Program-made: the position numbers and the translations under genes
Notes under the pieces: model-generated
Databases searched by the model: none
What the model was told of the DNA's origin: nothing
The model's input: only the letters and a program-made list of their open reading frames with translations
Part shown: positions 6,755 to 64,000 of the stretch, in pieces
Position numbering within the stretch: the first letter of the stretch is position 1
Layout of the letters: every line of letters starts with the position of its first letter
From: Raillietiella orientalis
Taxonomy: Eukaryota
Reading direction: 5' to 3'
Assembly (NCBI GenBank): GCA_036172245.1
Contig: JAYWIR010000019.1
Location: forward strand, 558,001-622,000
DNA length: 64,000 nucleotides

Positions 6755-7074
6755 GGTTATTAAAAACAAATAAATTAATGGGACACGGATAATTTATTTC
6801 AACATCATATTATCACATTAATGTTAATCATTTGTTTGCAATTCATGCAAATCCCTAATGATGATTGCTTTAATGCAAGGAGAAAGCATCTCAGGTCCCA
6901 ATTTTCAAATGCTAAAATATTCAACCTAAATGAAAAGGCTAAGCTGTGGTTAAAATAAGTTTCTAAGATTTGGTAAATGCAAATCTGAATATGTTCAAAC
7001 TACATAATCATAATGCAGATTTGAAGAATTAAATCAGTTTGTTTGCTAAAGGGACAATTTACTTAGTCTGGAAT

Positions 7075-7095
7075 ATGCAAGTGAGGATAAATCAG
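7075..7095 (+). repeat. 21-bp direct repeat, copy 2
   Basis: Exact match to 4799-4819. Confidence 0.9.
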
Positions 7096-16800: not shown

Positions 16801-19800
16801 CATGATCCATATTAACATACTTTCTGTTGTTTGGTTCTTGTTCAAGATGTTTGATGCTTTTTTAGATACTACTGAGGGATAAAAATTTTACCGCGAGCAA
16901 GCAGTTGTTACATAAGATGTGGAGGCAGAAACATTTTCCTAGTTCTTTAAAAGATGAAATCAAGAAATGGCTTAAAGCAGGTATATCCCATGTGACTCCA
17001 TTTTTAATGAAATGCTTCTTTATATGCATTTTATTGCTTGTAACTTCAGAAGATCACTAATATTCATTTCATGTAATTAAATGAAAAGTTTGGCCTCATG
17101 TAGGTTCCTGGCAGTTTCTTGCCAACTTCATTTGTCTGCATTTAATTCATTTGCAGAATTCCATCCAAAACTTTTCCCTTTTTGTCCATATGGGTAATTA
17201 GATGTTTCGATGTTGAAGAATTGGAGATTAGTAGCTTTTCAATCAAGAAAACTGTTTGCAGATATGTGGAGAAATCATGCTGTTTTCCAGATTTAGCCAA
17301 TGTTTCAATTTAAGCCTTTTGGTTCTTGCTTGTGCTCTCGTATTGGTTTCTTCTTCCTCTTCTTATTATGGAACTTTACAGCATTAAATCAGCCATTTAT
17401 CTGTTGACTGTTTAGCTGCATTCCTTGGTGAATGAGCTATTTTAAAATTCGATGAAATGGCCTTTGTACTCCTTTTCTACATTCTTTTTGCTTGTGCCAT
17501 CGAGCTTGACTTTTTCTGTGCTCATGTACTATTCAAATTGCAAAATTTTCAATTGTAAAATTTCTCGGTTAGAAATTTTTGTTCATTCAATAATTTTGAA
17601 AATATGCAATCTTTAAATTACATTCGGTTGTTTGAAATCTGCTTCAGAATTAACTTTGTAAGGTAGGTTGCCCTCCAAAAGTTTCTGTGCCCCAAAGATT
17701 AGCATATTCACGATATTTTGTTCTATTAAAGTTAAAATTTATTGTGCTGTTTATTAAAGTGCTTACGTATCTTTGAATTATCATACCTCAAATGTTTGGA
17801 TGAATTAAGTTGCAAACAAGTAGACTGAGTCTGCTTGATTTCTGTCTCACTGATTTAATAGTTTCTTTCTGCACTGTAGTGAGTATGATCGTGAAATGCG
17901 AAGAAGAGCTGCAAACCACGAGTTCATCAGATTTTCTGAAGAAGGAAAAAATGTATGAGAAAATTGGTGACAATTTAGCCAAACTGGAGGCTTATGAAAT
18001 TTCCGTGGAATATTATCTCAAGATGCTAGCTGTGAGAATGCTCATGCTTATGTATCTAGAATGGAAACCACTCTGTTCTTCGTAAACTATCCGTCTATTT
18101 ACCTACATCTTGCTTTTCACATCTAAAGAAATTCAAATCAGGAATCTAAGGCTTCATGAGATTACCTTTCCGCTTCCTTTTGTTAAATTAGATGCTAGAC
18201 AGTTTTACATCAGTAAGGGAGTAACAAATGTATGAGATTTTAAGTTTTGATTTGGCACAGTCATGGGTCTTTACTTCAGTCTAATAGCCCTAACTTTCTA
18301 GTGTGTGGTGAGTGCTGGAAAGTCGGGGACTGATCTGGTTCCTGCTCATTTGTCTCTTGCATACACATACATGGATGATTCCCAATTCCAGGAAGCTAGC
18401 AAACATTTCAGAAGTGCTCTCTCTCTGCAGGAAGGTAATCCAAAAGAAGTAAGTGTGTTTATATTTCGTACTTAGTCGTGAGATTGCATCGACTTTTATT
18501 TTTTCATTTATTCGAAGTGCAGTATATCAAAAAAGGAGTGATTCTGTAGAATGTCATGAGCACATTTGGAAAGCATTGTAAATGTGTGAATTTTCATCTT
18601 ACAAGATTATGTGATTGTATAACCAATCCCAAATTTCTTATTCAGCTTTTGTGATTTCTGAATTAGCCTTCTGTGATATGTACCACTCATCTTTTGTTCT
18701 TTTATCTGCTTCTCAATTGCATCAACCAAAACTATGTTGAAAATGATGCCACTTTTCGTTCCAAAATGAAATTGTACAACACTTCTCCTTCCAAAAAAAA
18801 GTTTCTAGTGAGTTCCTCTACATCATAAGAATGGTTTCTAAAGTCTGAGCACTGGTCATTCACATTTGAAGTCTTTATGCCTTCTTGTGGACTAGATTCA
18901 GGATGACTTGCTTACTGTGTTGCATATTCATTTCAATCTGCTCCATTGCATGCGAAAAGTATACATTGGCCTTTTTCGGTGCAAAAGGAATTTGAGAGTT
19001 TGCTCCATTGTTTTTCGTTTTTTTTCTTCAAACTTCAATTTGAAGCCTTTTTATTTCAAACCTTATGGCTTTGCTTTTCACCAAGTGCCATGAATGCTAT
19101 ATGAAATAGTTTTCTGGATGCCTGCTTTATTGTCTTTCAAAGAAAATGGGTGCACACTGCATTAAGTGAAGGACATTTCTGTTATCGGGGTAGAAGTAAG
19201 GAACAGTACAGTAACTTTAACAAAAATATTTGTTTTATGTTTCCCATTAGTGTTGCAAAATAACTCTCGGTTTGGCTGAAGCAGAGGAGAATCAATCAGT
19301 GGGCTATGACTCTCTGGAGGAGTTGTATAAATCTGCACAGGGATATGCTCAACAAGCACACAGTCTGAAATTAGAAATCAGAACGTTAAGTAGTCTAGAG
19401 GAAGTTCAGAGAAGCATGGGACTTGTTGAACAAGCTGGTAGGTGTTTGAAACCAAGCATGCTGAACTTTTCCCATAGATAATACACATGAGGAAAGAGTT
19501 TTGTTGGATGCAGACATGACTTCTCAGTCCTCTACAAATGAGGAATCCGAGGAAGCAGATAGTTGTTTGCTTACTGATTTATCCCAGATATCGTCTCATT
19601 CAGGTATCATTTCAGTAGTCTAACAGAATTCAAAGGGAATGCTTGTTAAGAATCTGAAGATCCAGCCAATGTCCCTGAAGAAGAATTAAGTGGAATGTCT
19701 GAACAGCCTCATTCTACACGATTGCACAAGCGAACTGCAATGAAGTTTCGTCGCAACGAAAAAGGAGAAACGCCCTTGCATCAAGCCTGCATTCAAGGTG

Positions 19801-22517
19801 ACTTGAAGAAAGCTAAGAAACTTTTGGAACATGTACGTTGTGTGTGTATAGCCCAAGATTTCTTTTTATTTGTTTTGGCATATGACAGGGACATCCAGTG
19901 AATGTGCGTGATTATTCTGGTTGGACGCCTTTGCATGAGGCAGCAAATTTAGATTACCCGTCAATAATCGAGCTCCTACTAAGCTTTGGAGCTGACATAA
20001 ATGATGCGGGGGGAGATTTGTGTGAGGGTCTGACACCTCTGCACGACGCTGCGAGTTGTGGCAATGTAAGAGTAATTAATTTGTTGCTTGATCACAGAGC
20101 AGATGTTGGATTGATCAACAAGAAGGTACAGAATTGCAGTAAATATTTATTTTTAAATGTAGATCAGGGCGAAACAGCTCTGGAATGTTTGCTAGACTGG
20201 AAAGCCCGGTGCAAACAAGAAGTGGGGAAAATGGATGCTGTATTGTCTAAGGAAGTAAGTGAGGTGGAGGCACGCTTGCGGAGAGCTTTGGAAGCAAGTG
20301 TGTTCTTGCTCTATTGTTGGATTTTTTAGTTAATCACTTGTTATAGATGGCGTGAGCCTTTCTAAAAGGGGGTACCTTGAGAAGTTAGAAAATCCCAGTA
20401 AGCATTCAAGTGTGAAATCAGATGCTGATAAGGAGCTCTCAAAATCAAGGGCATCATCTAGGAAGCACTATGCAGCCTTGCCAATCTCTCCATTCTCGTA
20501 CGCAGGTTCAAGCGAGCTTTTGGGTAATCACGAAAATGCAACCGCGGAATATAAAACGGCAATTTCTTCCCTGGGAAGTCGTTCCAAAAGAGCAATAGCG
20601 GCACCATGTGAGGTACGGTATTATTTCTTCTCTGGGTTTGTCGAATCTGTTGCCAACAGTCTTCAACAAAGAGGAAACGGGTACGAGAGTGCCCCGCTTT
20701 GATCGGGGAAGATGAAGTTGTTGATGATTGGCTCGTTGATGACTTGAATGGTGACCCCCAGACCCCCAGTGAAACGTCATGTTGCATGAAGCCGATTTCT
20801 AAGGTTAATGCTAGTAGTGGTTCTGCAAATTCATCACTTCGCGGTTCTCGTAACGAAAAGAAAAGAAGAAAGAACAACATTCAAGAAAACAACTTAGATG
20901 CAGAGCGCATCATGAGATACAGTCAGGTGCCTAAACCCAGCCAACTCAGCATCCCCAGCCACGCCGATGGCCAAGAAACAGCAAACAAGCAAGCTGCAAA
21001 TCAGCCTCTCCAGCAAACAGTTGGATCTTCGGAGCAGCCTGGTGTATTCCGAGTACGCATTCATATAGAAAACCACATGATTCTGGTGCCTGTACCCGAA
21101 TCTCACCGTGACTATACAATTCAGTGGCTTGCCAAGGAAGCTGCTCTGCGCTACGATGCGTAAGTCATTTTGATCTTTTCCACCAAGCTGAAAATGGAAG
21201 TAGAATGTTTTCGAAGTTCCCAGTACTTCAGCTCACCACAAGGGATGGTGCTATTTTAATTCCCACGGATCTCATAACACATGTCCTCATGCCCGAGGAG
21301 GAACTTTTTGGTCGTGCTATAAGCTGGAAGCAGCATTCTCTTTGGGAACGCTATGAGAATTCCTGTCAGCAGTTCAACACGCAGCCTTTGCAGGCTCTGC
21401 ACAAATCATTTTCTTCGTGCGAATTTGTGGAGTCTGTCAGACTATCCGGTTCTGCTGTGAAGCCATGCCATTGGGATCCCCTGTTCCGTTGTCTGTCCAG
21501 TGAACGAACCATCACCAAATTGGTATTTCAGGGAAACTTGTTGCCCGTCGTAGCATGCCAGGTAAAATACCAATTCAGTAGGAGGGGAGTAACAGGAGAA
21601 ACTGTGACACCAACTCAGCAACTGGGTGCTTTGCTTCGTCAACTGCCTGCCCTGCTGGAACTGAATCTCAGCTGCTGCGGAATCACGTCGGAACATCTGG
21701 ATGGCATCGTCGCCGGCGCCAAGCTGGAATCCCTTGAACCCCTTCCAACTCTAGCATGTGTCTATCTGAGTTACAATTCCCTGATGGATCATTCCCTGTC
21801 CAGTCTGATCGAACTCCTGGAACTCTTCCCTAGCCTGACAGGTTTGCACTTGCTCAGCTGCGGCTTCACGAAGAATGGAGCTCAGCGTCTTGCTCACATT
21901 TTTCAAGGTCAGTGCGCCTTTCATTCACCGAAAGCTATCTAAGATTGGTTACAAAGAGCTTAGCCGAATAAATGAGGCAGATGTGAGTTGTAATGTGTGG
22001 AATGATGGAGGTATTTCCGCCCTTCTCAGGAGCCTTTCCGATAAGTCCCTGCAAACTTTTCGCATCAGCCAGGCCTGCAACGATCGGGCAGACTATTTGT
22101 CCTTGGCGGAGAGCTTGAACGAATATTGCAGCAGAGTGGATTGTCGTTTGACTTTTCTGGATCTCGCGGCAAATGGACTGCCGGCCGAGTTCTTCACCCT
22201 TATTAAGCCGTAAGTCGTTGCCTTTGCTCCCTTTCGTGATTTCTTGTCGTCTGCTTAGGCTGCCCACCGTTGAAACGTTGATCCTGAAGAACAACCCTCT
22301 GCTTACATCAGAAGGCTTAGATTCGCTTCTCAGGCGTTCTCCCGTTAAGCAGCTGGATGTATCCGGGTGTCATTTAATAAAGCTGAAGGACCTGAAAATT
22401 TTAGAATATGCCTGCTTGCGGTGCCTGACGATAAACGACAGCGATCTTGGAGAAAACGAAAATCACTTCAGAGTAGAATCGGCTGGAACGATTACACACA
22501 ATATTTATCGAATATAG
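10808..22517 (+). CDS. TONSL: Tonsoku-like protein (TPR - acidic - ankyrin - UBL - LRR), 19 exons, about 1320 aa
   Basis: Exons 10808-10832, 11072-11329, 12603-12771, 13388-13508, 13634-13822, 16866-16980, 17880-18031, 18302-18448, 19251-19437, 19478-19603, 19651-19832, 19889-20125, 20168-20297, 20347-20612, 20660-21159, 21204-21561, 21619-21907, 21957-22209, 22259-22517 total 3963 nt with consistent phases. N-terminal TPRs (EEQRALATIGRTY), ankyrins (NEKGETPLHQACI, DYSGWTPLHEAAN, CEGLTPLHDAASCG), DDWLVDD motif, UBL (RVRIHIENHMILVPV..IQWLAKEAALRY), C-terminal LRRs. Confidence 0.93.
15150..15800 (+). mobile_element. Possible decayed non-LTR RT remnant in TONSL intron 5
   Basis: Eroded traces such as VDYVKSY (cf. 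IDYKKAYD) and a later KY motif in an A-rich stretch of the 3-kb intron; many stops. Confidence 0.25.
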
Positions 22518-22568: not shown

Positions 22569-24123
22569 TCACCAGGTTTCATCGTTGTCTTGCCAGGCGT
22601 CTTGCAGGAGGGACTCTTCCGCAACCGCGGCATTCTAGGAAAAAGAGAGACTTCACACTGTTGGAAAAATGGACACGCCCTTTACTTGAAAATGGATGTA
22701 TTCCCTAACGACGTCCGTCGTATTCGAGAACGCTTCCATGAATTCAGTTTCGTCCATTCCTTCGGACGTGTACCAATGCAGGAAGGCCTTGCGTCTGAAC
22801 ATGCAGTCGAACTGGTCGAGGAGCCGCTGGAGCAGCTCGTGGATCGCCGTGTTGTTCCCGATAAATATTGCGGCCAACTGCAACCCCGCCGGGGGGATGT
22901 CACATGCGGCTGCCTTCACGTTGTGCGGGATCCATTCGACGAAGTTGCTGCTCTTCTTATTTTGAATGTAGAGTATGTTTTCTTCCACTTCCTTCATCGA
23001 TATTTGCCCCCGAAAAATGGTGGCAGCGGTGAGGTAGCGACCGTGGAAGGGATCGCAGGCGGTCATCATGTTCTTGGCGTCGAACAGCTGTTGGAAAAGC
23101 TCGGAAACGGTCACTTTGGTGTACTGTTCCTCCTTCATGGAAGACAGAGGGGCAAATCCTGGCATGAACAAATGCAGGCGTGGAAACGGAACCATGTTGG
23201 TCGCCAGTTTCCTCAGGTCGGCGTTGAGTTGCCCTGGGAATCTCAAGCACGTGGTGATTCCCGACATGGCGTACGCTATAAGGCGGTTAAGATCCGCGTT
23301 CTTTGGGGCAGACAGCTTCAGTGTTTTGAAACATATATTGTACAAAGCTTCGTTGTCGATGCAGAAGGTCAAGTCCCCGCTGCTCGAAAGGACGTTGTGT
23401 CCCAGGATTGCATTGTACGGCTCGACGACGATGTCTGACACCTCGAAATGAAAGATTGGCAGAAGGGCCCGCCGAGCGACCGTCGCGGCACTACATCAGT
23501 CTGTGATGCACGTGTCCCCCTCCCCTCCCCCCCCCCTTCCCTCGTGCCTCGGCTGCGCCCTGCTTTGCGTGCTCAAGCCCCAAATGCTTGCCTGGCAACC
23601 GTTCTCTCAGGGGGCTCCCTCGCAGAGAACAGCCGGACCGGGCGTGATGTTGCACAAAACCGTGCGCGGTAGGCGAAAGCACACAATTGGGCTGGTTATT
23701 CGCAGCTTCAAAGGATCAAATCACAACATGATCTGAAAACGTCGCGGGAAGTTTCTCGTTTGTTTGTTTTCAGCGACGATCCAGTAAGATAAATGGAGTG
23801 GGGGATGCGGCAGGGCGAACCGAAACAGTGTCCCTGCGTCAGCTGCAGCCAGGCGCTGAAGTACGCTGCTTGTACAGGCGAATAAACGGTTTCGGGTCTT
23901 GCAGAGCCATGTCGTGGGAAAGAAGGCAAGCAAAAGCGGCAGCAAGCACGAGCTACCGACAGCGAAGACTTCGCGGTGTGCCCCGCGAAGCAGTCTGAGC
24001 ACCCATGTCATCGGTGGAACCCGCGGACGCGGACGCCCCTGACATCCCGACGGAGGACGGCAGCGTCCGTCGTCGCATTCACATCGGTTGAAGAAGAAAC
24101 GCATTGGAGACGATTGCGAACTT

Positions 24124-24175: not shown

Positions 24176-27100
24176 CCCGTTTTTTTTTTTTTTTTTTTTT
24201 GGCTGCGGAAATTCCATGAGGTGTTGAAGAATCTTCACTGCTGGCTAATGAGCGCGCGAAATCGTCGCATTACAGCATTTGGGAATTCAGAGAAGATAAT
24301 GCAGACCGCGATGGCTGAAATTTTTCTACCGGCTGCTTGCTAACAAAGACATCGCGGCACCTGAACCATCAAATGCACGCAGCTCATTTGGTGGTCGGGC
24401 AAATTAGAAACAAGTCAAGGACGGTAGAAGTAGGGACGGTGAAAGCGTCGAGAAGATTCGACTAGGTGAGTTCTTCCCCACCTCTTCGTGACCAATACTG
24501 CAAGGAAGTTTCGGGTCCCATGGAAAAAGATGCGCTTTGCAAACTTCCTCCAATGAGGTTTGATTTGATGCAGTCATCCCTCGTGATACCATCTCTGTAT
24601 TCGCTTTTTGCTTCCCTTTTTTTTTATATGTATATATTTCGTTGCCATTAGTTGTTTACTCAAACATCTCGGTAGGCATTTCGAAGTACGTTTTACGCAA
24701 ACTACAACGATGGCTACAAATTGGAAAAAGAAAACGCGAGCACCATGAATTAATTTCAATTTCATGTACCGGTTCGCTTTCCTGATGAAAAAATTCTTCT
24801 CCTGCGTTTTCAAGGAAGTCAGTCAAACCTCCCATCCTCCTACAACGGATTCCACCATCACGAAAAAGAAGAAGCCTTGTGCAAGCGAAAACTTTCTTGC
24901 TTACAATTGAAAATCGTAGGAGTATTGCATCATTCGCTTCCCGAATTTCTCAGCGGATTGCGTGAGGAGTTCCTCTCCTGGTCAGGACGAAACTCGAGCG
25001 CACTCCCGTCGGCGAGGGTGGTGTGTCGGTTGTTGTTGTTTCCCCAACGAATTCGCGTGTGCTGGGTGCAAATCAAGGGATTCCTGCGCCGAAGGCACGT
25101 CGCTTGCCATTCATCGTTGCGAATCTTCGCCTCCCTGCAGGAAGAAGGACTCCGGGTCAGCGCGCGCCTCAGGCCGCTCAATCGGAAGGGACGTGTCCGC
25201 ATTCGGCGAAGGTGGAGGGGTAAAACGAGGCGAAGCGACGACTGGCAACCCTGCACCACTTCCCGCGCCAGGAGGCGGCGACGGGCGACGCACCTTCCTG
25301 TGCGCGAGCCTCTGGACCGAGGTATAAATAGAATAATATCCGCCGAGCGTCTCTCGGAGATCCGTCGCTCCGCATCGCCAAGCGGGTTCCCACGTGAAGG
25401 TAAAACAAATGCGGCGTGGTGGGTCATGTCTGGGAAAAGGGAGGCATCCGCTGCCCCGGGAGCGCCCCGATAGTAACGGGCACCGGTCCCCACTCGGTTT
25501 CGACTCTTGCTGCACGGGGCTCCCGGATGGGGATCGCGTTTCCAGGCAACCAGCGCCGCGTCGGTCGCGACGTTTCCGCGAATCCGCCGTCGTAGGTGCG
25601 CGCGCGTCACGTGCTGCAGCGCGGAAATCTGCCCTCCACCCCGTGTTCCAGGGTTCCCAACAAATTGCAGCGGTGGTGTTTACCCGTGCATCGCAATGCA
25701 CGGCGCTCTCGTCGGAAACGGGAAAAAAGCAGAGAGGGGGGGGGGGGGGGGAAACAGTCGCCGTGGTCGATTTTTGTTTTTGTTTTTTTCGAAAGCGCTC
25801 CCGCACTTTCGGCCAGTGACCTAGCAAAGCGGCTGCCAAGACGCAAAGCCTGAAACGAACAAGGAGAAAGCGTTCGTCCCTGGAAGAGGCGCCTCCAACT
25901 TCCAGGGTTGGCTGCTCCGCGCGCCAGCGTGAGTTGCTGCTGTTACCTTCGGAGAGGGGAAAACGCTGAAGGTGCTGATGATGCGGTCCGGGTATTCCTC
26001 TTTCAGCTTCGCCGAAAGGAGGGTTCCCATCCCGGAACCCGTTCCTCCCCCGAGGGAATGGGAGAACTGGAACCCTTGCAGAAGATCGCAGTCCTCGCAC
26101 TCCTTCCGGATCACGTCGAGCAGTGGGTCCAGGAGTTCTGTCCCCTCGGTGTAATGACCCTTGGCCCAGTTATTGCCGGCTCCGCAGCAGGCATGCACGA
26201 AGTTATCAGGTCGGAAAAGATGACCAACAGAGCTCATTTTCACGGCATCCATCGTTCCAGATTCCAAGTCCGTCAGGACGCACCGTGGTACGAATTTTCC
26301 ATCTGTTTCGGAAGAAGGGAGGAGAGGAGAGGAGAGGTTTCCTGCGGAAGGCGCGGTGGGCGCATACCGGGCGTCTCGTGGAAGAACACGTTCAGGCGTT
26401 CCTTCTGCATGTCAGTGTGCCCCGTACACAAGCCGTCCGCGCCGATCCCATGCTCCCGAGATATCGTCCTCCAAAACTGGAAAAGCAACGCAGAGGTCAC
26501 GGTGCTTTCCGAACGAACAAACAAACAAACAACCAGTGGGAGAGAAAAGCGGTTTCCCGGGGCGACAGCGGGACTCGGCGCCCGGGAGAAAAAAAAAAAA
26601 CACTCGCACTTTCTTCTGACAGCTTCGCTCCGGAGCAGCAACTTCCGTTCTCCCGCAAAGGGAGAGCAAACAGTGCAAGCCGTGTGCCTCCGGTCAGCTT
26701 CACGCCCGCGGCTTGCTCCCGCGCGTGGGCGGTCGGGCAGTCCGTTCCGAGTGCCCCACGTTGCACTGCAGCGCTGAAGATCGCAACGCGAGGGGAAGAA
26801 GCTCTTGCGGACGTTCGAATGCACAGAAACACGAGTGACGAGGAAATCCGGTGACGTGGACCGCTCACAAGAAGAGGACGTGCGACCAGGCAGCACTCAT
26901 TCATCGTCTTCGATGGGGGTTAACCAGAGGAGAGGTTAATCGCTTCCAACCCAGCAGCAGATGGCAGCAGCGCAAGGGAACTCCCAAGTGCGGCAATCCA
27001 AGACCCGGAAGACTTTACACCTTCTTCGGGGGAGGGGGGGAGGGGCGATCCCAGCAATGGCGAGGGATTCCCCTTCGACCCGCGCAACGTTCGTTCACTT

Positions 27101-31660: not shown

Positions 31661-33286
<1,626 letters not shown>

Positions 33287-40609: not shown

Positions 40610-40876
40610 CGCTCTACAGGATCTAGAGGACCAATCCACGCGCAGTGTGATCCCATCACCCCCCCACTCCCAGAACTTGGTGCCCTCCCTACATTTCACC
40701 TTTTGTTTGTTTTTTTGTTTTTTATTCCTACCCCCGCGCGTTGGATGGACCTCGCCGGTTTTTGCACCGGCAACTAGCTTACTGTTGAGGAGTGGTGAGC
40801 CCTTGGGTTCACCACAAGAAAGTAGAATGTGTTTTTATTTGTTTCAAATAAATGCCCCGGCACATCCGGGTGACCA
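40610..40876 (+). mobile_element. 5'-truncated LINE 3'-end copy with 11-bp target-site duplication
   Basis: Flanked by acccctacaag at 40599-40609 and 40877-40887. T-rich tract, hairpins and terminal aataaatgccccgg-N5-ccgggt are homologous to 59160-59399 (+) and 62195-62407 (-). Confidence 0.85.
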
Positions 40877-42918: not shown

Positions 42919-45900
42919 TCAGGTTAGGGAGTCTGAACGCAGCCACTGGGCCGGCACCCACTGAGGCTCGCGCTCCAGAAGGTTGACCTCGTGGACCAGC
43001 TGCTGGTACACTTTCTCCACGTCCATGTTGACCAGCGTCAGGTCGAAGTAGTGGCCGTAGCGTTCCTCGATCTCGCGGGCCTTCTCGATCACGTGCTTCA
43101 GTTCGTCGTCCTGGAAACGGAAAAGGACAGGTGGCTGAGTCCCTTCTTCCCTCAGCACCTGCGCCCCGCTCCATCCATCCCCAGTCCTCTTCCCTGCCCT
43201 GTGACAACACCCCCTTCGGCCCTCCTCGAACCCTACCCCATCCCGCTTGTGGCGCGCGCGCACCTTGACGTGGGCACCCATGCGGGCGCGATTGCGCCGC
43301 ATGACCTCGAGGTTGGGCGGGCAGACGAAGACGACGAACGGCTTGAGGTCGGACGTGCGTAGAGAACGCAGCGACTGGGGGTGGAGGTTGAGGACGCAGA
43401 CGCGTCCGGAGGCGACGACGGCGCGGATGGCGTCCAGGCTGGTGCCGTAGTGGGCGCGCTCGTACTCGCCGTGCTCGACGAAGCGCCGGGCGCGGATGTC
43501 AGCCTCGAACTGCGCCCTGCTGGAGAAGTGGTAGTCCTGCCCATCGGTCTCGCCCTCGCGGCGAGGGCGGCTGGTGTGGGGCACGGCGGCGGCGAAGCGG
43601 GCCGGGTCGCGCTCCATCAGCTTCTGCCGGAGCTCGTGCCGGCCGACGTTGGGCGGGCCGATGAGCACCACCGGGCGCCGGTGGTGCGTGCGCGGGTAAT
43701 ACAGCGCCACCTCCTCGTAGGCGGGCGCCTCCTCCTCCGCCGCCCCGGCGCCGCCACCGCCGCCGTCGTCTTGGGCGACCTTGCGGCCCTTCTTCCTACG
43801 GCGCCGTCGGCGGCGACACACACACAGCAGACGGCCTGAACGCTGTCGGTCGTGGCGCTCCTTGCCGCCGCCGCTACCGCCACCGCCGCCTGCGGCGGCG
43901 TCCTCGAAGACGGCCTGCTTCGCGGCCTCCCTCCTGGAGAGAGGCGCCGTTGTAGGGAGGGGGAAGCGAGCGCCCGACTCCCACCCCTGCCCGTCCCCCT
44001 CCTCACTGGAGCTGGAAGCTCATGCTGGGGATGAGCCCCGCGAGCGACTGGTCCTCCTCGCCTTCCCGGTACGCCTGCCACCAGTTGGGATCGTCCTGGT
44101 TGATCACGTGCAGGATGTCCCCCTTCTGGAAGCTGATGCCCAGCTCGCGGCAAGGGATGAACAGGTCCTCCTCGGGGTCGTAGTCGAAGTGGGCCTTCAC
44201 GTGCATCTGGGAAAGGGGGTCGCCGTCCGTCGCCGCCGCCTGTCCCCGCTCACCACGCCGTCGCGCTGGTTGGGCCGCACGTGCGCGCTGGGGACCACCA
44301 GGAAGACGAGCGTCCCGCTCATCCTGGACAGGATATCACAGATCTCGTTGACGTTCTTCCCGCGCAGCTCCGTCCCGTTGACCTCCAGCAGCTCGTCACC
44401 CTCGTGCAGCAGCCCGCTCTTCTCGGCTATGCCGCCGCGGATGACGCGCCCGATGATCACTGCCTTGCCCTCGTTCAGGATGGTAGCGCCCTGGCGGAAG
44501 TCGGCGTGAGGGGGAAAAGGAGGAGGAGGAGGGGCGTCGACCCCCTCCCGCGCACCGGACGCGGCGCGACCTTCTCACCAAGGGATCGTTGGTCTTCTCC
44601 ACCTTCACCACCTTGATCTTGTCTTCGGCGTACTGGTGCACCCTGGACAGCACCTCCTCATCCGTCTTCGGGATCCCCAGGTGCAGCGCCAGCCGGTCGT
44701 GGACCTGCAGCAGCTCCTGCACGTCGTACGAGTTCAGGATGTCGATCAGCTCGATGGCGTCGGGCACGGTACTCTGCTGAAGCACCCCCAGGCACTGCAA
44801 CGGCAATACGACGCGCGTGTCAATCAACCACTATGAGCGGCGGCAGTGCGGAGTAGGAGGAAGATGAGAGGAAGAAAGGAAGAGGAAGTAAGAGCAAGAT
44901 GGGCGGAAGAGGATGAGGAAGGGAAAAGTGAGGAGGAAGGGGAAGACGATGAGGCGGAGGTGGAGGGAGTGAGTGGATGGCAGGCAGGCAGGCGCTTCTG
45001 ACCCCGGAAGAGGCTGCGGGTCTTCCGGGCGGGCACGCAGAAGCAGGACAAAGGTCTTCCTGCTTCCGGTCGCAGCGGGAGCGCTGCCGGGGCAGGCGCT
45101 ACAGCCAGCCGCAGTAGAAGGAAAAGAAAGGACGCCCTGCCTCCGAGAAGACGACTACCTCATGACGGGAAAAAGAACAGGGAAAGTGGACGGAGAGGGG
45201 AAAGTCCTCTCTTGGCCGAGTACACGCGGCGGGACCCGCGCCGGGTCATCCCACCTCTTGCGCCGTATCCTGGCACGCCGTGGACACCGGTACCATGCTC
45301 TTCGCCTGCCAGCACTCCTGGATCTTGTTGTAGACGCCCACTACCCTAGCGAACTCGGGTCTCCTCAGCAACGCCTCGACCGGAGCTAACTTGCAGCACC
45401 CCTTCAGGGAGGGTGTGCTGGCGACCCTGGCCAGCAGATCTCCGAGCTGGCTCACGTCTGGAATAGAGCGTGAAAGGGTGGAGAGGAGCCTCTGCGGACG
45501 AGGCGGGACACCGGGCTTACCAACCACCTGCCGCAGGGTCACTGAGGGCACCTCCTCTTCTTCCAGGGAGAATCCTGTGTTTTCCACTCCGGCCTTGGAC
45601 TCTTCCAGCGCCTTGAGCCTCTGGGACTCGCGGATGGATTCACGGAGCATCATCTCTTCCTTGTGCCTCGCGGCGCGCTGCAGCTCTTCCTTATGGATGT
45701 CCTCCTGGAAAGCCCACAGGCGGTGAGCGACGGGTGCGCGCGGTGAAGGTACCGAAGGGCAAAAGCAGAAGCAGCAGCGGTGGCGACAACCACGAAGATG
45801 CTCCCGCGCAAGGGAACGCCCACCTCGAAGACGAACCGGACGAGACGCAACGTCCGGTGACCCGGACGCGACACGCCGACCCCGGAAACCCTGGGAAGGA

Positions 45901-51900: not shown

Positions 51901-54900
51901 TTCATCATGATGCAAGAAGAAGAAGAAGAAGAAAAAAAAAAAAAAAGAAGGAAAAAAAAAAAAAAAAGGAATGAGCATATACTTGTTGGGATAACTTGGT
52001 CATGTCCACCGGCTTTATTTTTTTCAGGGCGGACAGTTTCTCCAACCGATCTTTCGCTTGCTGTTCCACTGCGATGACGAAAGCATCCTGCACGTTATTT
52101 TCCTGTGCTAAATCAAGGGCTGAAAAATGCAAAGACAGGGCAGAAGTTAACACTCGTGTTGCTGCTCCTGCGAACACGCCTGGCCGAACACCGCCGCCAC
52201 CCGCTCGCTCCCCCGCGGCACGGAAACACCTCGGCGGCCCCGAAAGACGGGATAACAGGTCGGTCCGAGCAAATCGCGGGATATGCGGAGGGATTTTTCT
52301 ATTCTGCCCCGGCTAGCCCGTCAGAGATGCACTCGGGAACGCTCTCGGAATTTCAAGCGAACTCAAAAAATCTAGTTACGAATACCTTGGTGACTTGCCG
52401 CATGCTTAGAGGCGCCGGTAGCTACGAAATGCTGCAAAACAAAGCTCCATTCTGCACACTTTGCGGCAGTGCGAACGATTTGAGTACACTGCTACTGATA
52501 ACCTACGGAAATTGTAACCAGTGCACCCAAAAAAAAATTTACATCCATCATTCACAACTCACTACCTGGCAACACTTGCACCGCTTGTTCATGATACTCA
52601 CAAAACGAATGCATTCCTGAGTGGACGAATCCATTACACCTATAGTAGGGTAGCTTTCTATTGACTTTTATGGCATTATCATAAAGATAATCGGCGAACG
52701 CACAAAAACACGCTTGATCTAAAAAAAAAAGTTCGAGAAAACGTTACGAAATGTTTTCAAAAGCTTCTCTGCTGCAAACGGAAAAAACTTGAAAAACTGA
52801 AGAAGAATTTTTAATAGGAGGAGGTGCAAACATTTCCGAGTTTAGCACTGGCACACACTGTTTCTAAAGCGGCAGCATTCCATTATGGAGGACGGAACGA
52901 ATTGCGAAATAACGTGAGTAACAGGTGAAAAAATCGAATGTGTGTTTTCTTTTTCTTTTTTTCCTTCTCCTTCCTTCCTTTCTTCTTCCTCACTTTTTAG
53001 AACGTAGCCGTGAACTTAAGTGGAGTATTTATGGAAACACACACACACACACACGCACACTTTGCGAGTGGTGAAGCTCTGAGAGAGCACGTTAGTTTCC
53101 ATGACTTCCAGGCACAGTTTCACACTGTGTAAACACTTTTCGGAGCGATTAAAAGCTGCAAGCCCTAAAAAGGTACTCACTCGCGTAGCGTTCGGGGAGG
53201 CTGCGTGAAGTGCCGTCTTGTGGTCCCGCAAAGGAACAAAAAGACGAACGCAACGAGCGGTTGGCAGCTGATGCTCCTCCCGGTGATTTCGGGCAGATTA
53301 TCCGAATTTTTGCAGCAAGGAAATGTTTTTTTTTTTTTTTTCGATTTTCGAGGGCAAAAATTGCATCCGCATGTGCGTTCACGCGCTCCTTCTCGCTGCG
53401 TCCTACATTGCACAGTCACCCGTGGTTGCTCCATCTATTCTTAAGCGCCGCACTGTTGTGATGCTCGTTGTCTCCCCCCCCACCCTTTCCCTTCACCCCC
53501 CAACCCTTCCCCCGCCATTTTTTCTTGCTATCGGCAAGCGAAAACGCTGGGTGAGAACCCAGTGCTTTTTCAACTCTTCCGGAGGGGGGGAGGGGAGCAG
53601 GAAAAAACGACGCCTCTCCGAGGTGAAAGAGCGAGCAGACGCATCGCAGGGAGACGGGGGAGGGGAAGGGGGGGGGGAGAATACTCTGGCCGTTCCGCAA
53701 CGAGGGAAACCTCGACCCTGTGCAAAGAGGTCGCCGGTTCCACCCGCGGCACGGACGGGAGCGCGCGACGGCGTGGGTGGGGGTGCGCGTGAGTGAGTGG
53801 AGGGAAGGAAACCCTTGCCCCCCTTCTCTCGCTCGCTCGCTTCCCCCACCGGAGCGAGCAGGCCGCGATATCCGGCGGCGGATCGGGCAGACTGGCTGGC
53901 GGGTCTCCGTCGCCCCTGCGGCGCAGCAGACGAAGAGGGCGAGGGAGGGCGAGCATCTCCGGGGTTGACGTCGGCGCCGCCTGAGGAGGGCGCGCGTGCT
54001 CACCCGGAGGAGGAAGGGCCGAAGGGGAGGGAGGGAGGGAGGGAGGGAGGAACTTCCCACCTGACTTCTTCCCGCTCTTTCTTTTCACCCGCAGGCAGAT
54101 GGTCCTGGACTTGATGCACTGCAAAAGGAGAACCCTCGTGGGGAGAGGAGAACCGCGCGAGTCGGCGCGTACCTGATGGATGTGGGACAGCACCTCGGTG
54201 TGCGTGGAGTCCTCGAGGCACCTGCCGTTGATCTCTAGGATCTCGTCGCCGACCTCCAGGTCGGCTCGGTCTGCAGGCGAGCCTGGAAGACGCACACGGA
54301 GAAGGAGGGTCACGGCCAAGGCACGGGGAAGGTTGCGGGTAGCCCGCGGTGATGGGTGCGAGCAGAGGGGCGAAGACAGGTCATGCCGCATCAGGTGGCT
54401 GCGTCCCTACCCACCCCCGTTCCCTCTTGAGGTGGATTCACTGCCAAGGCGGGTGTGCCGCTGGAGGGGCGCTGCGAGGTTCGCATGGATCACCCCCGCC
54501 CTCGACTCCTGCCTCCGCACGGACGCCTCCTTTCAGGGACACGCTGCCCGCGAAAGGAGTGGGTCGGAATGTGGGGCGGAAGGGTTCCCTCGGGGAACTT
54601 CTCTCTGCGAACCCCCGAAATCCTCTCCTTCCCCTTCCCTACCGTTCCCTGAGAGGCAACACTCCCTTCGAAAGGGGGTTGTCCTCCGGCCTCCCTCCCT
54701 CTGGCCAAGAGGTCCTCTGGCAGGCAGTGTGTGGCCGTCGCTGGATGTTTTCCGGGTCTTTCGGGGTTTCAGCGACGTCGCTACGCTTCCTAACCGTTCC
54801 CCTCCCCGACCTCCTCCCATCGCGCCGCGTTCGCTCGCGAGGTAGGTCTCCCTGGAGACGAAGCGAGTGGCTGGAAGTCCTTGTTGGGGACGAAGAGGAA

Positions 54901-56839: not shown

Positions 56840-57683
56840 TCCTGGTCTCTGGTCAAGCTCGTCGTTGGAGAAGGGAATGTGTAGGTCTGCAATGCTTCGA
56901 TATTGAGGTCATCGGCGGAGGTGGGGGCGTCCGCGTGTCCGGGCGCCTCACGCTCCGAGGGTGCAGCCTTCTCCACGTACCGGCTGCACGGCTCCCTTCC
57001 TCTGTGGTGGCACACGCGCGCGACTCACTCGCCTGTCGGGTGCGTCCATCCGAGCGCGCGCGCGTGGTCAGCGCGCGCGCAAGGGATAAGGGAAGACGAG
57101 GGAAGGATTAGGGAAAGAGGAGGAAGAGGGTTAGCGCGGGGAGAGGTAGCAGGAGGTGGACGAGTTTTCCGCGGACTCTCTGGGCCCAGTTTCTCGACTC
57201 GGAAGAAACCGCGGTCGGCTCTCGCCGACGGGGAGCGAGAAGGGAGGAGGCGCTTGGTTGGCAGGAATTTCGGGGACTGCCTAGGCTTCGATCCCTTCAT
57301 CCAGCGAGGGAGGAATGCGCGGGGACTCCTGGCGCAGAGCCTCAAGGTCCTGCGCAGAACGCACTCCCCGTCCTTTTCCACTTCCTCCTCTTTCCTCTTC
57401 TCTTAGTTTCCGCAGAGGAGATTCCTGCCGAGTGAGCGCGCGCCGCTCCTTCCATCCAGGAACATCCGGAGGATCGGAAAGCCTCTTTCGAGGTTTTCCC
57501 TTTTCCTTTCTCCCGGCATTTTCTCTGCAGGAGAAAGGAAAGAGCAATGAGAGAGAGGCCTGCCTACCCGCAAGGGACAGTTCCCGGCGAGCCCTTCCAC
57601 GCAGACGCCTCCACCTCGGGAGGCCGCGGCACGGTGCCTAGGTGAACCCATCATCCGACGGTGACTGGCACGCAGGGAAAGCT

Positions 57684-57785
57684 CGCTATAAATAGACCCC
57701 TGGCAACAGTGGGTAGGTCGCGTCCGGAGGCAATCGGCGGCACTCCGCCAACGCGCGCTATAAATAGACCCTTGGCAACAATGGG
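57684..57785 (+). repeat. Two 30-bp direct repeats (cgctataaatagacccYtggcaacaRtggg), period 72
   Basis: 57684-57713 and 57756-57785, 28/30 identical. Confidence 0.9.
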
Positions 57786-58239
57786 AAGTCCTTTCAGATG
57801 GGTGAACTCCTTCGCGCCCCACTCGACCGACGGGGGAAACTGGACACGAAGAGGAGGAAAAGAAAGGAAAGAGGAAGGGGCAATGGAAAGGAAGGGAGGG
57901 GGAGAGCAGAGAAGCGGAACGTCCTCCCGTTCCCTACTCTTCCTGACTTCCCTACTCACAGAGAAGCCGATCGAGGGGGGTGGAGGCCGCTTGCTACTGC
58001 CTCACCCGTCGCTCGGGACCTCCTACGGAGTGCGCGCGCAAGCGCTCGCCGATCGGATCGATGCCGACTCATCCCCGCTGGAGATTGCAGGGGAGCGGGA
58101 GGTAAGGTCCACAGTGCCCCACCCCCTCCACATGCACCACCTATCTTCCCCTCCTCTCCCATCGACCTCCCCGCAATCCAGGCGGTCCTTTCTTTTCGTT
58201 CTTCTCTCGCCTTTTCTTCCTCCTTCCAGTCCCCGCCCA

Positions 58240-59399
58240 CCTCAAGATTAGAGGATGTGGTCTTCTCCTCGGACGCATGGCTACACTGTCCAAGGAGAAC
58301 GGCTGCATGGTATGCAACCCCGCCAACTCCACCGCATGGCTGGAGGAGATAGTTGGCACATGGGGGAAGATCAACGAGCCTAGAAGCGAGAGATGGAACT
58401 GCCAGCGTAACAGCAACTATGCCCGCTGCTCTCTGCGGGCCATACTGGAGTGTACTGCTAGGAGCACGTGGACAGAGACGACCTCTCTAGCTACGGCGCT
58501 GCCCTTCCTGAGGAGGGCGCTTCTCAGCAGCCGGACACCGAAGTGGCAAGTCTCCTGCCGTATCGCAGGCAGAGAGAAGCTGATGAGCCTATGGGAGAGC
58601 TGGCGGATGCCACGACCCCGAGTGTCCTTCCGCGTGGTATAATGAGAAGGGACGAGCTGCTCAGCATCCCGAGGGATGACCTGAAGTGGCACCAGTGTTA
58701 AGTGAATCCAGGATTTCCCTTCTAAAGTGGCAGGAGTCGGCGCTTCTGCTGTTGCATTGGAGTCTACCCTGCGACGCACGCCGCTTCCACTGGACGCGGG
58801 AGAGAGTAAATCCTGAGTGTGCCAGGTGCGGGGAATGGGACTCTCTCCCCCAATGATTGTTAACTGTGCTGCCCTCCGATCCTTTTAGGAACGTTTCGGG
58901 ACGACCCTTGAGATCCCGGTGGGCAGCTCTCCCTCCCAGAGACGTTTTTCGGCTTCTCTTCAAGCGGGACGCCCTGCAGCCAGCCGCAGACCTGGAAGCA
59001 CTTTGCTGCACCCGTGGTAGTGTGGCGGCCTGGAGTGAAGTCGACGATGAAGATAAGAACGAGAGGGACATTATCCCGTATGCTGTTCGCCTCCTGCTGA
59101 AAGCAACTGGATGGCTCCAGCTGGAACGAATGAAGAAGGACCTCGAGGGCATCCTGCAAAGGATGGACCCTCATCCAGTGGGCAGTGATCCCTTCCTGGC
59201 CCTCCAAAGTCTTTTTTTTTTCTTTGTGTTTTATTTTTCTTTTTGTTTTTTTTCCCGCATCCCCTTCCACTGCCAAGAAGAGTCAAGCCGGTCTGCGTCC
59301 CGGCGTCCCGGCAGGTCCAGCGTTGTGTTGGCCGTAGTAAAGCCTTATATCACGTTGTATAGAGAATTTTAATAAATGCCCCGGCGTTCCCGGGTGGTA
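58240..59399 (+). mobile_element. 5'-truncated L1/Tx1-like LINE copy A (ORF2 C-terminus and 3' UTR), decayed
   Basis: Peptides ATLSKENGC..PANSTAWLEEIV, LLLHWSLPCDARR..VNPECARCGEWDSLP and LLFKRDAL..CCTRGSVAAWS align with the minus-strand copy at 59808-61550. Ends in a T-rich UTR and aataaatgccccggcgttcccgggt. Confidence 0.8.
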
Positions 59400-60229
59400 A
59401 CCCCGTCTGCATCCAGTCCGATCGCTGTCCCCGCGCTGCGGGCTGTTCTGGAGACGTTGCCATCTCCCAGTGCGCCCCCTTCCGAGGTCCTCGCCTTACT
59501 GAAAGACGGGAGGAAGAGGAAGAAGGAAGGATGCACGCGTGCGTGAAGAGGAGCGATCAATCTCCACGACCTCCACTAGACAAGGCTAGTCCTGTGAGGC
59601 TGCCGATGACCCGCGGCATGCGTCCCTCGCCGTCTCGGCTTTAGCCACTCGAGGTCGCCTCTTTCCAGGGTATGACAAGCCCTTGAAGGCAGCTTCCGAA
59701 GAAGCAGGGAGCGCACCTTTGCCCGAGATGTTCAGCCAGGCGAAGACCGGGTCTTCGTTGCGGTCACCCAGGGCGCGCGCGCGTCCCACGCTCCTCCGTA
59801 GGGAGGATCAGAGAGATCCCTCCTGCGGCTCCGATCCGCGGAGCCCGGGCTCTTCTCTGGAATGCTCGCCAGGGAGGCACCGGGACACCTCCTTCTCTCG
59901 TTGGCGATGATGGGACCATCTTGACGCTATCCTTATGAAGAGGACAGCAAAATAGATGGCATCTCTATCGTTCTGGACTCTGGCGTTGCTCCATGCAGCC
60001 ACGGTCCCGCCGCATGGGCAGCAAAGTGCTACTGGGGATGTTGCCGACGTGAGGGCGTCGCGCAGGAAGAGGAGCTTTAAAACTTCTCTGGCGTTGCCAC
60101 CGGGGATTCCAAGGGTCGCGGCGAAGCGTCCCCAAAGGGACCGGAGGGCAACACACTCCACTAGAAGGTGCGGGAGTGATTCCCTCTCCTTGTATCTTGC
60201 ACAGTTTGGGTTCACACACACGTGTGTCC

Positions 60230-60859
60230 GTGGGGAGTTCCCCCTCCTGTCGTGCAGCGGAGGGCGGACCCCCCTAACCGGGGACCCCTCCGGTTTCAAG
60301 ATGGAGCAGGAGTCCTCACGGGCACCTCTCCAGTTGTTCAAAGAAGCGGACCCCCCTTTGCGGGGGTCCCTCCGAGTCGTCGCCTCTTCACATAGTGCAA
60401 GGAAGCAAGCGAGAGCGATTTCCTGCGGGAAGCTGCAGCGCCCTTTCTGAGTTTCGGAAGCGTCCCTTAGGGGTTCTCTTCATAGGAGTGAATAGGAGCT
60501 GTTCCCTTGCGGGTTCCCTCCGGAGAAGATGAAATGGAGAGGACCACCCCCCTCCCAGGGGGTGTCCCTCCGGAGAGTATGAGGAAGGAGATTCCCTTCG
60601 GGGTTCCCCTTCGGAGACAACCAGGGTGGAAGGTGCGATCCCCCCCTGATGGAGGGGATCCCTTCCCAAGCGTGAGAGGAACGGACTCCGAGCCCTTCCT
60701 GGATTCATAGGGCGGACTCCCATCCCGAGGTGCCCCCTATCCTGAAGAATTACACGCCCTCCTGCGGATTGCCGCAGGCGGAGAGACGTGGAAACAAAAC
60801 AGTGTGCTTAAAAGAGCCACGTGCGCCTCGAGGCACGCGACCGGCTCTGAGGTACTTAG
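60230..60859 (-). mobile_element. 630-bp non-coding hairpin-array insertion nested in LINE B
   Basis: Flanked by a 13-bp imperfect TSD (60217-60229 cacacgtgtgtcc / 60860-60872 cacacccgtgtcc). Removing it restores W-T-R-V-C-V-N-P-N-C, collinear with WTRERVNPEC in copy A. Confidence 0.8.
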
Positions 60860-62194
60860 CACACCCGTGTCCACAGATGTCAGCGGGCGTTGCAGGGGAG
60901 GCCCCAGTGCAGCAGCATGAAAGCCAACTCCTGTCACTTTAAGGGGAGGATTCGGTAGTTCCCGAGCACTAGGGGACACTACAGGTCTTCCTCTAGAATA
61001 CCCAGAAGCGTGCCCCAGCGCAAAAGTCCATGAGGTCGAGCACTGGGGTCGCAGCGTCGATGAGCTGGCCCGTCGTGCACTCGTCCAGTCCATTTCTCCT
61101 TCCGGAAATTTCCACAGTAACTTCCTATCTGGCCGAAAGGCTGCTGTCCAGATGCTCCCTAAGGGAGGGCAGCGCAGCGGTGAGGGAGGTTCTGTTTGCC
61201 CATGGACTCTTCGCGGGATCTTCCAGGATCTCCCGGAGCGTGCAGTTGTTGTTGCGCGCGTACAGGGAACGTCGCCCCTGTTACGCGCTTGGCTCCTGGA
61301 TCGTCGCCCACGTGAGAACGGTTTCCTTCAACCAGGCACTTCCGTTCGCGGGGTGGCGCGAGATCCATCCGTTTTTCCTCGGCAGCGTGGCCACCTGCCG
61401 CAGGTGCAGTCCTCCGTGGATGAGGCTTCATGGACGGCGCTCAAGGAAGGACGTGAGTCCCATGCTGCAGGTGGCTTGCTGGACGAGATGTGCAGATTGG
61501 CACCAAGTGGTGCTAATCTGGTGCCACGAGGGCAAGGGTTCGAAACTGTAGCTGTAGCAATATTTGCTCCAGCGTCAGAAGGCCTAGGCCTCCGTCCTTT
61601 AAGGCGACTCAGGGTCTCGCTTTGCCCCAGAGGGCGATTCAGAGGAGGTGCTTTGTTCGCTTCCTAATGATACATGGCGGTGAGCAAACAAAAAGCAAGA
61701 AGCGGAGGAGGGGGGGGTTCACAAACGTGTTCCACACCACGGCCCGCTCCGCAGGGAGAACCTGCCTCGTTGGAACGGGCCGAGCGCTTACAGTGCTTTC
61801 TGAAGACGCGGACCAAGCCTCTGAGGGGCAAAAGTCCCCCAACGGAACGCCCAGGTACTTTAAGTATCGGCCCGTGGGGATCCCCAGGCGAATCTAGTGC
61901 GGCCGTCTTGCCCACGACACGCCAACGGGAACCACGGACGACTTTACCTTGTTCACCACCAGGTCCGTTCCATGACTGAGCAGCTCGAAGAAACCGACCG
62001 TCAAGTGTACATGGTGACCAGCAACAGCAGAAGATCGTCCGCGCATGCTGAGGTGGCAGGCTTGCCGGGACATACGCGCGGGTGGAGAGCCAGAGTCTCC
62101 CTGTATGCCCTCAGCACCAATTCGAAATAGGTGCTAAAGAGCAGGGGGTTCAGGCTGTCGCCCTGCAGTATGCCGCGTTGCACTGGCACGCCGT

Positions 62195-62407
62195 TCAAAC
62201 CCGGATGTTCCGGGGCATTTATTTCAAGGAAATAAGATTACATTAAAGTGTCGCGTGGCGAACCCGAAGGTTCACCACTCCAAAACAGCTTGCTGGTTGC
62301 CGGCTCTATGCCGGAGAGGTCCTTTTGATGCGCGGGGATGGGAAATAAAAAACAAAAAGAAACAAAAAGTTCAAATGTGTGGGGGGAAACAAACATTTGT
62401 TTCCCCC
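62195..62407 (-). mobile_element. 5'-truncated LINE 3'-UTR copy nested in the RT of LINE B, 14-bp TSD
   Basis: Exact cactggcacgccgt at 62181-62194 and 62408-62421. The insert is homologous to 40610-40876 and ends (minus strand) aataaatgccccggaacatccgggt. Confidence 0.9.
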
Positions 62408-63489
62408 CACTGGCACGCCGTACATCGTCTGTCCGCTGAAAAAGATATTGATCAGCGCGTCGCTCCAGCAGGAGCGCAGGTAGGCCATCACAGAGGTCGG
62501 GAACAGCATACGACTGCTCCGGGCTAATGAAGCTTTCTGTTATCCTCCCCAGCCGTTCGGCTCACAGTTTCTGTAGCAACTTGGTGTCCGCGTTTACGAC
62601 GGTAATCGGCCTCCAGTTACTTATGCTCCGTAGGTCTCCTCCTTTGGGAAGGAGCCGTACCCTTGCCGAAACGAGGCGGGAACGTCGCCTGTTTCGCGTA
62701 TCAGCAGGGTCAATTGTTGTATCAGGGAGGTCAGTCCCGCCGCGAAGCACTGGAAAAACTCCGCAGGCAGGCCGTCCTCCCCAGGAGTCTTGCGCCTCTT
62801 GAGCTATCCGATGGCGGTGATGATCTCGCCATCGTGAAAGGCTCGTCGAGGCTTCTCCTGCGCTCTCCCCGATAGCTGGAGCATCTTCCGGTCTCAGGAA
62901 TCTTGCGAAATCCCAGTCGGGAGGTGCTCTCGCGTACAGGGAGGGGAAGAACTTACGTATGATGCCTCTTACCTGAACGGGAGCCGAGTGTTCCCGGCCC
63001 TCGTCGTCCAGCAAGCTGGTCGACCCGGATTGCCAGGCTTGCCTCTCGGCTCCCGCTTTGAATTCTGCCAGCTTCCGGATATTGGGTGTTCCGCCGTAGC
63101 GACGGGCGCATAGGTACGCCCGCTCGTTACCAACACCGTCTCCGAAGCCTGCAGGTTGGCGATGCAGGGTAAATTGCTCGCAGAACTCTTGGAACGAGCG
63201 CTTGAAGCGGTCTGCAAAGTGAAACCCTGTAGGAACTCGCGGAAGTGTTCCGTGGCTCGTGGGAGGTTCACCCAGTCCCCTGGGAGACGCCACGCATCCG
63301 AGGGGGGAATCGGGAGCGCAGATGGATCTCGAGTACGATGGGGGAATGGTCCGACAGCTCCAGCTCCATCTTGCCTCGTCTGCCCACACGTGAGCAGAGG
63401 TGCTGGTAGAGGAAGACATGGTCGATGCTGGTCTCCATACCCGGCAGGGAGGATGCGGCACTGGTGAAGAATGGATGCTCCCTGTTGAT

Positions 63490-63960
63490 TGGCCAGGATT
63501 GGACGTCGACCTTCGGGGTTCCTCTCCGGTTGTGGGCATGGAGCTGTCCTTTCCTCTCCTCCCCGGGAGGATCCTCCATCGCGTACCATGGAGCTGGTCG
63601 ATACCCCCCTCGGGAGTTGCCTGTTAAGAGTGTAAAAATTGCGTCCCTTCGGGGTTCGTCTTCAGAGAAGTAAATAAGGAGCGGCTCCCTTACGGGTTCC
63701 CTCTGGAGAAGAAGTAAGATGTCCCCTCCGGGGAGAACAAGGAAGAGGTTCCCTTCGGGGTTCCCTCTCAAGAGTAAGGGAGGAACGGACTCCTTCACCC
63801 GGAACCTTCCCGGATTCATGGGGTGGTCATCACGCGGGGTACTCCTAACTTGAAGAGCTTCGCGTCCCGCCCCCCTTAGGAAGGCGAACGGTTCTTCAGC
63901 ACCGTTTGCAAACCAAAAAAAAAGAGGAAATCCGAGAAAAAAAAAAAAAACTGAAAGGGA
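63490..63960 (-). mobile_element. Copy of the hairpin-array repeat abutting or inserted in the EN domain of LINE B
   Basis: Homologous to 60230-60780 over several hundred bp (e.g. gcgtcccttcggggttc.., gaggaacggactcc..cttccYggattcat). Preceded in sense orientation by a T-rich tract; may continue beyond the window. Confidence 0.75.
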
Positions 63961-64000
63961 AACAGCGAAACAGAAGAATCCCGAAGGAACCCTATCATCC

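Follow-up and report, generated by a model that had tools for sequence, protein, structure and literature searches.

A hairpin-rich, non-coding insertion in a decayed LINE as a candidate non-autonomous retroposon

Comparison of a decayed LINE with its paralogue in the same 64-kb window (by which we mean the whole stretch of DNA that was analysed) indicates that a 630-bp hairpin-rich segment at 60230-60859, referred to here as element A, is a real insertion inside that LINE. A is non-coding. Whether it is also a non-autonomous retroposon, built as a variable array of GC-rich hairpin units and moved in trans by LINE machinery, we regard as an even call. If that reading holds, A would be an unclassified non-autonomous retroposon with a hairpin-array body and without a recognisable Pol III head or poly(A), and it would be relevant to repeat annotation and to the choice of templates by LINEs.

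The LINE that hosts A (M) occupies 59811-63528 on the minus strand, where an endonuclease C-terminus, a reverse transcriptase (RT) and a CCHC knuckle follow one another on a single strand in the order of a non-LTR retrotransposon. The endonuclease C-terminus (63325-63528) aligned to residues 181-244 of the relative P0010 (E 0.012) and closes with the motif ..SDHSPIVLEI of an AP-type endonuclease (63325-63354). The RT motifs LLPKGGDLRSISNWRPITVVNADTKLL (62574-62654), QGDSLNPLLF (62136-62165), ACADDLLLL (62022-62048) and YLGVPLG (61837-61857) come next, followed by a GGLG box (61567-61596), the CCHC knuckle HVCVNPNCARYKERESLPHLLVEC (60153-60224) and the stop codon (59808-59810), all on the minus strand. 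Pfam at E <= 0.001 gave no match for any ORF of at least 110 aa in the last 8 kb of the window, and the 353-aa minus-strand ORF at 62565-63623 had no match among longer proteins. A read-through translation of 62004-63623, with two in-frame stops set to X, matched RVT_1 at E 3.3e-6 (27.4 bits, just below the gathering score of 29.6), and the knuckle matched zf-RVT at E 0.047. An exhaustive HMMER search with the read-through translation recovered 488 proteins at E <= 0.001, the best of them with 52% identity (E 1.9e-54). Among six top relatives, Pfam found RVT_1 in all six, and endonuclease (Exo_endo_phos), RVT_1 and zf-RVT together in three proteins of 1212-1299 aa. To judge from these protein similarities, M is a decayed non-LTR retrotransposon (LINE).

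A lies inside ORF2 of M, with the RT/thumb region on one side and the CCHC knuckle on the other. The paralogue is a LINE fragment (P; 58204-59205, plus strand) placed tail-to-tail with M, and because it is collinear with M on both flanks of A and carries there an uninterrupted site (58792-58804), A is best explained as a genuine insertion with a target-site duplication. Ahead of the insert, tblastn paired M 61412-61290 with P 58259-58381 (E 5.8e-10) and M 61274-61140 with P 58406-58531 (E 1.05e-07); on the side of M beyond the insert, M 60215-59826 paired with P 58806-59192 (E 6.0e-14). At the nucleotide level, the last block ahead of the insert joins M 60941-60881 to P 58723-58783 (47/61), the first block past it joins M 60203-60169 to P 58818-58852 (25/35), and a third collinear block agrees at 53 of 75 positions. 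Between the two flanking blocks there are 34 nt in P versus approximately 677 nt in M, P being shorter by approximately 640 nt.

The duplicated 13-mers, CACACGTGTGTCC on the left (60217-60229) and CACACCCGTGTCC on the right (60860-60872), agree at 11 of 13 positions and differ at the other two. This agreement by itself is not significant: when 71-nt segments 630 nt apart were drawn at random, 35 of 300 pairs scored as well. Both 13-mers align to the one P site at 58792-58804 (10/13 and 8/13), the pattern that marks a duplicated target. We also considered a deletion in P instead of an insertion in M, but the spacing of the protein domains argues otherwise: between the RT end (61837) and the zf-RVT end (60132), M spans 568 aa with A and 354 aa when A and one 13-mer are removed, and the corresponding distance in three full-length relatives is 354, 391 and 401 aa. 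The original prediction, made from the DNA alone, had proposed a 13-bp target-site duplication and a mobile element spread by retroposition; the alignment of both 13-mers to the empty site confirmed the duplication, and the empty-site paralogue and the restored domain spacing support the retroposition reading.

Identity among the copies of the hairpin family is 86-90%, compared to about 68-77% for M and P. Because the hairpin copies are more alike than M and P, and because the two 13-mers differ at 2 of 13 positions, A is younger than its host LINE. On its plus strand the insert begins with GT (60230-60231) and ends with AG (60858-60859), exactly at the boundaries of the target-site duplication, as in introner-type elements. 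This may be due to chance (about 1 in 128, counting either strand); the splice contexts are weak and no plus-strand gene is evident.

As the original prediction had it, the insert does not code for protein: stop codons occur in all six frames of A, the ORFs inside it had no Pfam match, and a 139-aa ORF lying across it had no match in the protein databases. Its predicted richness in hairpins was also upheld. The minimum free energy was -288.0 kcal/mol on the plus strand (z -3.57) and -288.4 kcal/mol on the minus strand (z -4.51); none of 20 shuffles did as well on either strand. Of the stretches of approximately 0.60 GC in the window, the kilobase that holds A has the lowest mean folding energy over 44 nt. 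When the pair span was limited to at most 60 nt, 16 local hairpins formed on each strand of A, several of them with 10-16 pairs, and the plus strand ends in a strong 14-pair hairpin (60813-60848) located 11 nt from the right end of the element.

Four degenerate hairpin units of approximately 30 nt are arranged in tandem at 60463-60623 (starts at 60463, 60503, 60553 and 60594; spacing of 40, 50 and 41; 63-77% identity to the reference copy), and further related units were seen at 60264, 60346 and 60709. The unit pattern consists of a CCC(C)-loop-GGG(G) stem and then TCCCTCCGGAG, each unit being roughly 30-50 nt long, and 17 of the 25 (overlapping) matches of the unit motif in the window fall within A or the two related copies described below. 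The tandem hairpin units that had been claimed are therefore present, but TRF called no array within 60230-60859, so that the array is degenerate. No poly(A) was found at either end of A. The ends of the element (GTGGGGAGTT... and ...GAGGTACTTAG) are not complementary, and terminal inverted repeats were absent both in the sequence and in a repeat search.

Sequence related to A occurs at two other places, and the three copies within the 64-kb window are all near its ends. Copy B (63529-64000) has the orientation of A; its left limit is given by the endonuclease alignment, as it adjoins the truncated endonuclease domain of M, and it probably continues past the end of the window. Copy C (1-220, with hairpin-type sequence to approximately 215) is inverted relative to A and is cut by the start of the window, and no LINE M/P homology was found next to it. 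Common to the three loci is a two-hairpin core, which lies at 60460-60518 in A (nhmmer envelope 60452-60535, E 2e-26; blastn 86-88%), at 63641-63701 in B (nhmmer E 1.5e-25) and at 141-82 in C (nhmmer E 1.4e-24). Only this core of 59-80 bp is shared by all three, with 86-90% identity. In pairwise blastn, 60460-60529 matched 63641-63712 (86%), 60459-60518 matched 141-82 in inverted orientation (88%), and 60566-60608 matched 63724-63765 (86%). Homologues had been proposed at 63490-63960 and 1-200 and, as a possible third, at 54560-54720. The first two do share the core with A, but the homology is much shorter than 630 bp and the left 229 nt of A remain unmatched; the third was discarded, the best nhmmer match there having an E value of 8.8.

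A gapped alignment showed A and B to be collinear over approximately 350 bp (about 60460-60816 with 63641-63926), with a score of 274 against a maximum of 124.5 for 50 shuffles. The two differ by indels the size of hairpins: additional hairpins are present in A at about 60535-60565 and 60609-60675, and B has one hairpin that A lacks, together with plus-strand A-rich runs at about 63884-63950. The earlier claim that poly(A) is lacking holds for A, but B carries A-rich plus-strand runs at about 63906-63950. Leftward, the homology of A, B and C ends at one common base (60459, 63641 and 141, respectively). The left 229 nt of A have no match in B or C and are made of unrelated hairpin units up to the target-site duplication; given this unmatched part, A may be composite or may carry transduced sequence. 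Pattern scans with two core motifs returned 0 loci in public metagenome contigs and 0 in genome contigs, and a literal search of a paper library for a 14-nt core string returned no match.

The M/P homology stops exactly at the ORF2 stop, and the 600-bp spacer between M and P opens with a T-rich tract (59212-59253). We considered that copy B might be the 3' UTR of P, detached when M inserted, and dropped the idea: no target-site duplication was found at the putative ends of M, where 286 of 500 random segments scored as well. Nor is the spacer (59206-59805) related to A or C on either strand, or to B on the plus strand. Its best score, 29 against the minus strand of B, was marginally over the shuffle maximum of 25. 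Other traces of this LINE include a third RT-region fragment at 40677-40871 (plus strand), 75% identical to 62199-62392. The RT region of M itself contains a 32-nt near-perfect palindrome, TGGGGGGAAACAAACATTTGTTTCCCCCCA (62379-62410), with a (AAACAAAAAG)x2 repeat just ahead; at this palindrome the M reading frame has about 60 residues without a counterpart in the relative P0003, possibly another small insertion.

To classify A, we compared it with the known kinds of mobile element. ARAGORN found 0 tRNA genes in the 64 kb, Rfam gave no tRNA, 7SL or 5S match, and a B-box pattern with 1 mismatch was matched 23 times in the window versus 35.8 expected, with only one match within A. B-box matches are not enriched, and A has no tRNA-like head. 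Against the 3' ends of M and P, A scored 21-23 versus shuffle maxima of 26-34, which amounts to no likeness; since A is unlike these 3' regions, M and P are not demonstrably its partners. Of the features by which a SINE is recognised, A has the LINE-type target-site duplication, and neither a Pol III head nor a tail (as compared with LINEs M and P) was found. Transposase families had no match among the 213 ORFs of at least 110 aa scanned in the window. A duplication of 13 bp is within the range of endonuclease-dependent LINE/SINE insertion and longer than is usual for cut-and-paste superfamilies. Taken with the lack of terminal inverted repeats, the lack of coding capacity and the occurrence of copies in both orientations, the 13-bp duplication fits target-primed reverse transcription, with LINE machinery acting on a non-coding RNA.

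If A is such a retroposon, its insertion into ORF2 of an older LINE, by then already diverged, would have proceeded by target-primed reverse transcription, with 13 bp of the target duplicated. The process would have passed through an RNA intermediate, and the RNA would have been mobilised in trans by a LINE RT. The hairpins could, for example, imitate the 3' stem-loop that the enzyme recognises, and the 14-pair hairpin at the end of the plus strand would suit an RT with this requirement. Unit number and identity would vary from copy to copy, as they do in a variable tandem-repeat region, with the two-hairpin core as the conserved module. Points in favour of the retroposon are the empty site, the restored spacing, the inverted copy C located apart from M and P, the relative age of insert and host, and the gain and loss of units between A and B. 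Points against it are that no promoter, 3' tail or tRNA-like head was found, that the B-box is not enriched, that A is unlike the 3' ends of M and P, that the left 229 nt are unmatched and that two of the three copies are cut by the window. A further proposal, which we offer as a long shot, is that A belongs to a nuclear family of retroposed hairpin arrays in which the double-hairpin core serves as a module for a LINE RT or an ORF1-type protein, and the flanking units are gained, lost and shuffled like BIME modules. If true, this would be a class of non-autonomous retroposons without head or tail, defined by structure and not by a Pol III gene ancestor.

The main rival to the retroposon reading, which we find tenable though somewhat unlikely, is that A is a severely 5'-truncated copy of another autonomous LINE family with a hairpin-array 3' UTR, B and C being 3' UTRs that belong to longer copies with ORFs beyond the window. 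LINE copies usually end up truncated at the 5' end and flanked by a target-site duplication, and B and C leave the window just where an upstream ORF2 would be expected, provided that A and B have the minus strand as their sense strand. The common base at which homology is lost fits a defined terminus, and the strong 14-pair hairpin terminates the plus strand of A; however, the 229 nt of A past the shared boundary are unexpected for a common 3' terminus unless there was transduction. Also at odds with a truncated LINE are the absence of any coding remnant in A, the lack of a relation between A, B or C and the 3' regions of M and P, and the absence of a LINE-like ORF beside copy C on its visible side. 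The original prediction had offered a LINE 3' UTR as one identity for the element. As far as M and P are concerned this was not sustained, since the insert lies within ORF2 and is unlike their 3' ends; the idea survives as the truncated UTR of a different LINE family.

Two other accounts are less likely than a truncated LINE 3' UTR. The hairpins could act as DNA, either in a palindrome-rich element (MITE-like, or modular like REP/BIME or mitochondrial GC-cluster/double-hairpin elements) or as filler from double-strand-break repair, which we hold to be unlikely. Folding energies and G-U pairs are symmetric between the strands, as DNA palindromes would give (-256.7 and -261.8 kcal/mol with 12 and 13 G-U pairs in A; -157.4 and -155.0 kcal/mol in B; -71.8 and -71.2 kcal/mol in C); moreover, the copies differ by entire hairpin modules, and what is conserved is a compact double hairpin. 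A palindromic DNA element of this type is opposed by the missing terminal inverted repeats, by a duplication over the usual cut-and-paste length and by the lack of a transposase among the 213 scanned ORFs.

Least probable, and in our view very improbable, is a functional structured RNA carried on a retroelement, whether ribozyme-bearing and retrozyme-like or a scaffold that binds proteins, its GNRA/UUCG tetraloops being under selection. The GNRA-type loops that had been quoted are indeed at their places on the minus strand, cccGCAAggg at 60504-60513 in A, cccGTAAggg at 63687-63696 in B and tccGCAAggg at 87-96 in C, so that one loop is of the GNRA type in all three copies (GCAA, GUAA, GCAA). 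In addition, the stem of this loop in copy C contains a U-G pair, which fits the minus strand only and would be mismatched as C-A on the plus strand; also, in a single local hairpin, both partners of one pair differ between A and B (U-A to C-G, columns 70/79). The loops themselves speak against a functional RNA, since the UUCG type is on the plus strand and the GNRA type on the minus strand and one UUCG position is UUAG in A; the strands are symmetric, and the helix joining the two core hairpins is broken in A. Covariation on three and on two sequences has no statistical power, and RNAalifold on the same sets, under this same limit, proposed mostly invariant or arbitrary long-range pairs. Rfam at gathering thresholds gave 0 matches across the 64 kb, ribozymes included; permissive scans of 58500-64000 and 1-1500 gave sub-threshold matches at chance level only, the single one within A having 19.4 bits versus a gathering score of 38.2 (E 2.8). 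With the strands equal in folding and G-U pairs, the two loop types on opposite strands, UUAG in A and no Rfam match, the proposed GNRA/UUCG scaffold was not borne out, and nothing so far supports a structured-RNA role for A.

Several known systems share features with A, the nearest being the VNTR-bearing SVA and LAVA and the LINE/SINE pairs that depend on a stem-loop. In the 'stringent' LINE/SINE pairs, such as eel UnaL2/UnaSINE1 with their CR1/L2-type tails, the RT recognises a 3' stem-loop. Like A, these pairs have no poly(A) and a hairpin near an end (60813-60848 in A); unlike A, they share a tail between SINE and LINE, which was not found in A versus the two visible LINEs, and A has no terminal short repeat. 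REP/BIME arrays and the mitochondrial GC-cluster/double-hairpin elements consist, like A and its copies, of short GC-rich hairpins in scattered clusters; modules are gained and lost, and a double hairpin forms the conserved core. They are, however, bacterial or organellar, with other mechanisms of movement or origin, whereas A lies in nuclear DNA, with tubulin and MAGUK genes as neighbours, and is flanked by a 13-bp duplication. SVA and LAVA are the VNTR composite retrotransposons of hominoids (PMC3287187, PMC4432496, PMC7353768). As outlined in these reports, they are non-autonomous and non-coding like A, have LINE-type target-site duplications and contain a central array of GC-rich units, each tens of bp in length, that vary in number. 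They differ, on the same accounts, by a poly(A) tail, by Alu-like and SINE-R or L1 modules and by their restriction to apes; A has neither such modules nor poly(A), and its units are hairpins. Retrozymes and Penelope-like elements with hammerhead ribozymes (PMC4918200), as sketched in that source, offer a proposed likeness in being non-autonomous with a highly structured RNA. A differs from what is described there, as it has no hammerhead or other ribozyme match and no long direct repeats flanking it within one element.

A sits in a nest of decayed retroelements and not beside a gene for it to regulate. The GC content of the window is uneven, with 29-40% over 2-20 kb and 60-67% over 33-50 kb, and the AT-rich 18-kb block at 2000-20000 has no ORF of at least 200 aa, containing isolated TPR (10999-11448, plus strand) and ankyrin (19886-20326, plus strand) pieces. 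Two beta-tubulin genes are placed head-to-head about 880 bp apart, with starts at 30781 (minus strand) and 31661 (plus strand) and a GT..AG intron after codon 19 in each. The plus-strand gene is otherwise one long exon (31748-33286); the minus-strand gene is spread over approximately 8 kb, with exons at about 25824-26411 and 22656-23495, and the two copies are about 73-74% identical at the DNA level. A compact GC-rich gene of the MAGUK type (L27, PDZ, SH3 and guanylate kinase) with few or short introns occupies 42922-44830 on the minus strand, and a further PDZ-coding ORF is found at 53573-54406 on the same strand. The domain set of the MAGUK-type gene would suit an animal or one of the close unicellular relatives of animals. 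A 50-nt tandem duplication (57667-57716 and 57739-57788, within 57667-57788) has a spacing of 72 nt and 82% identity between its halves.
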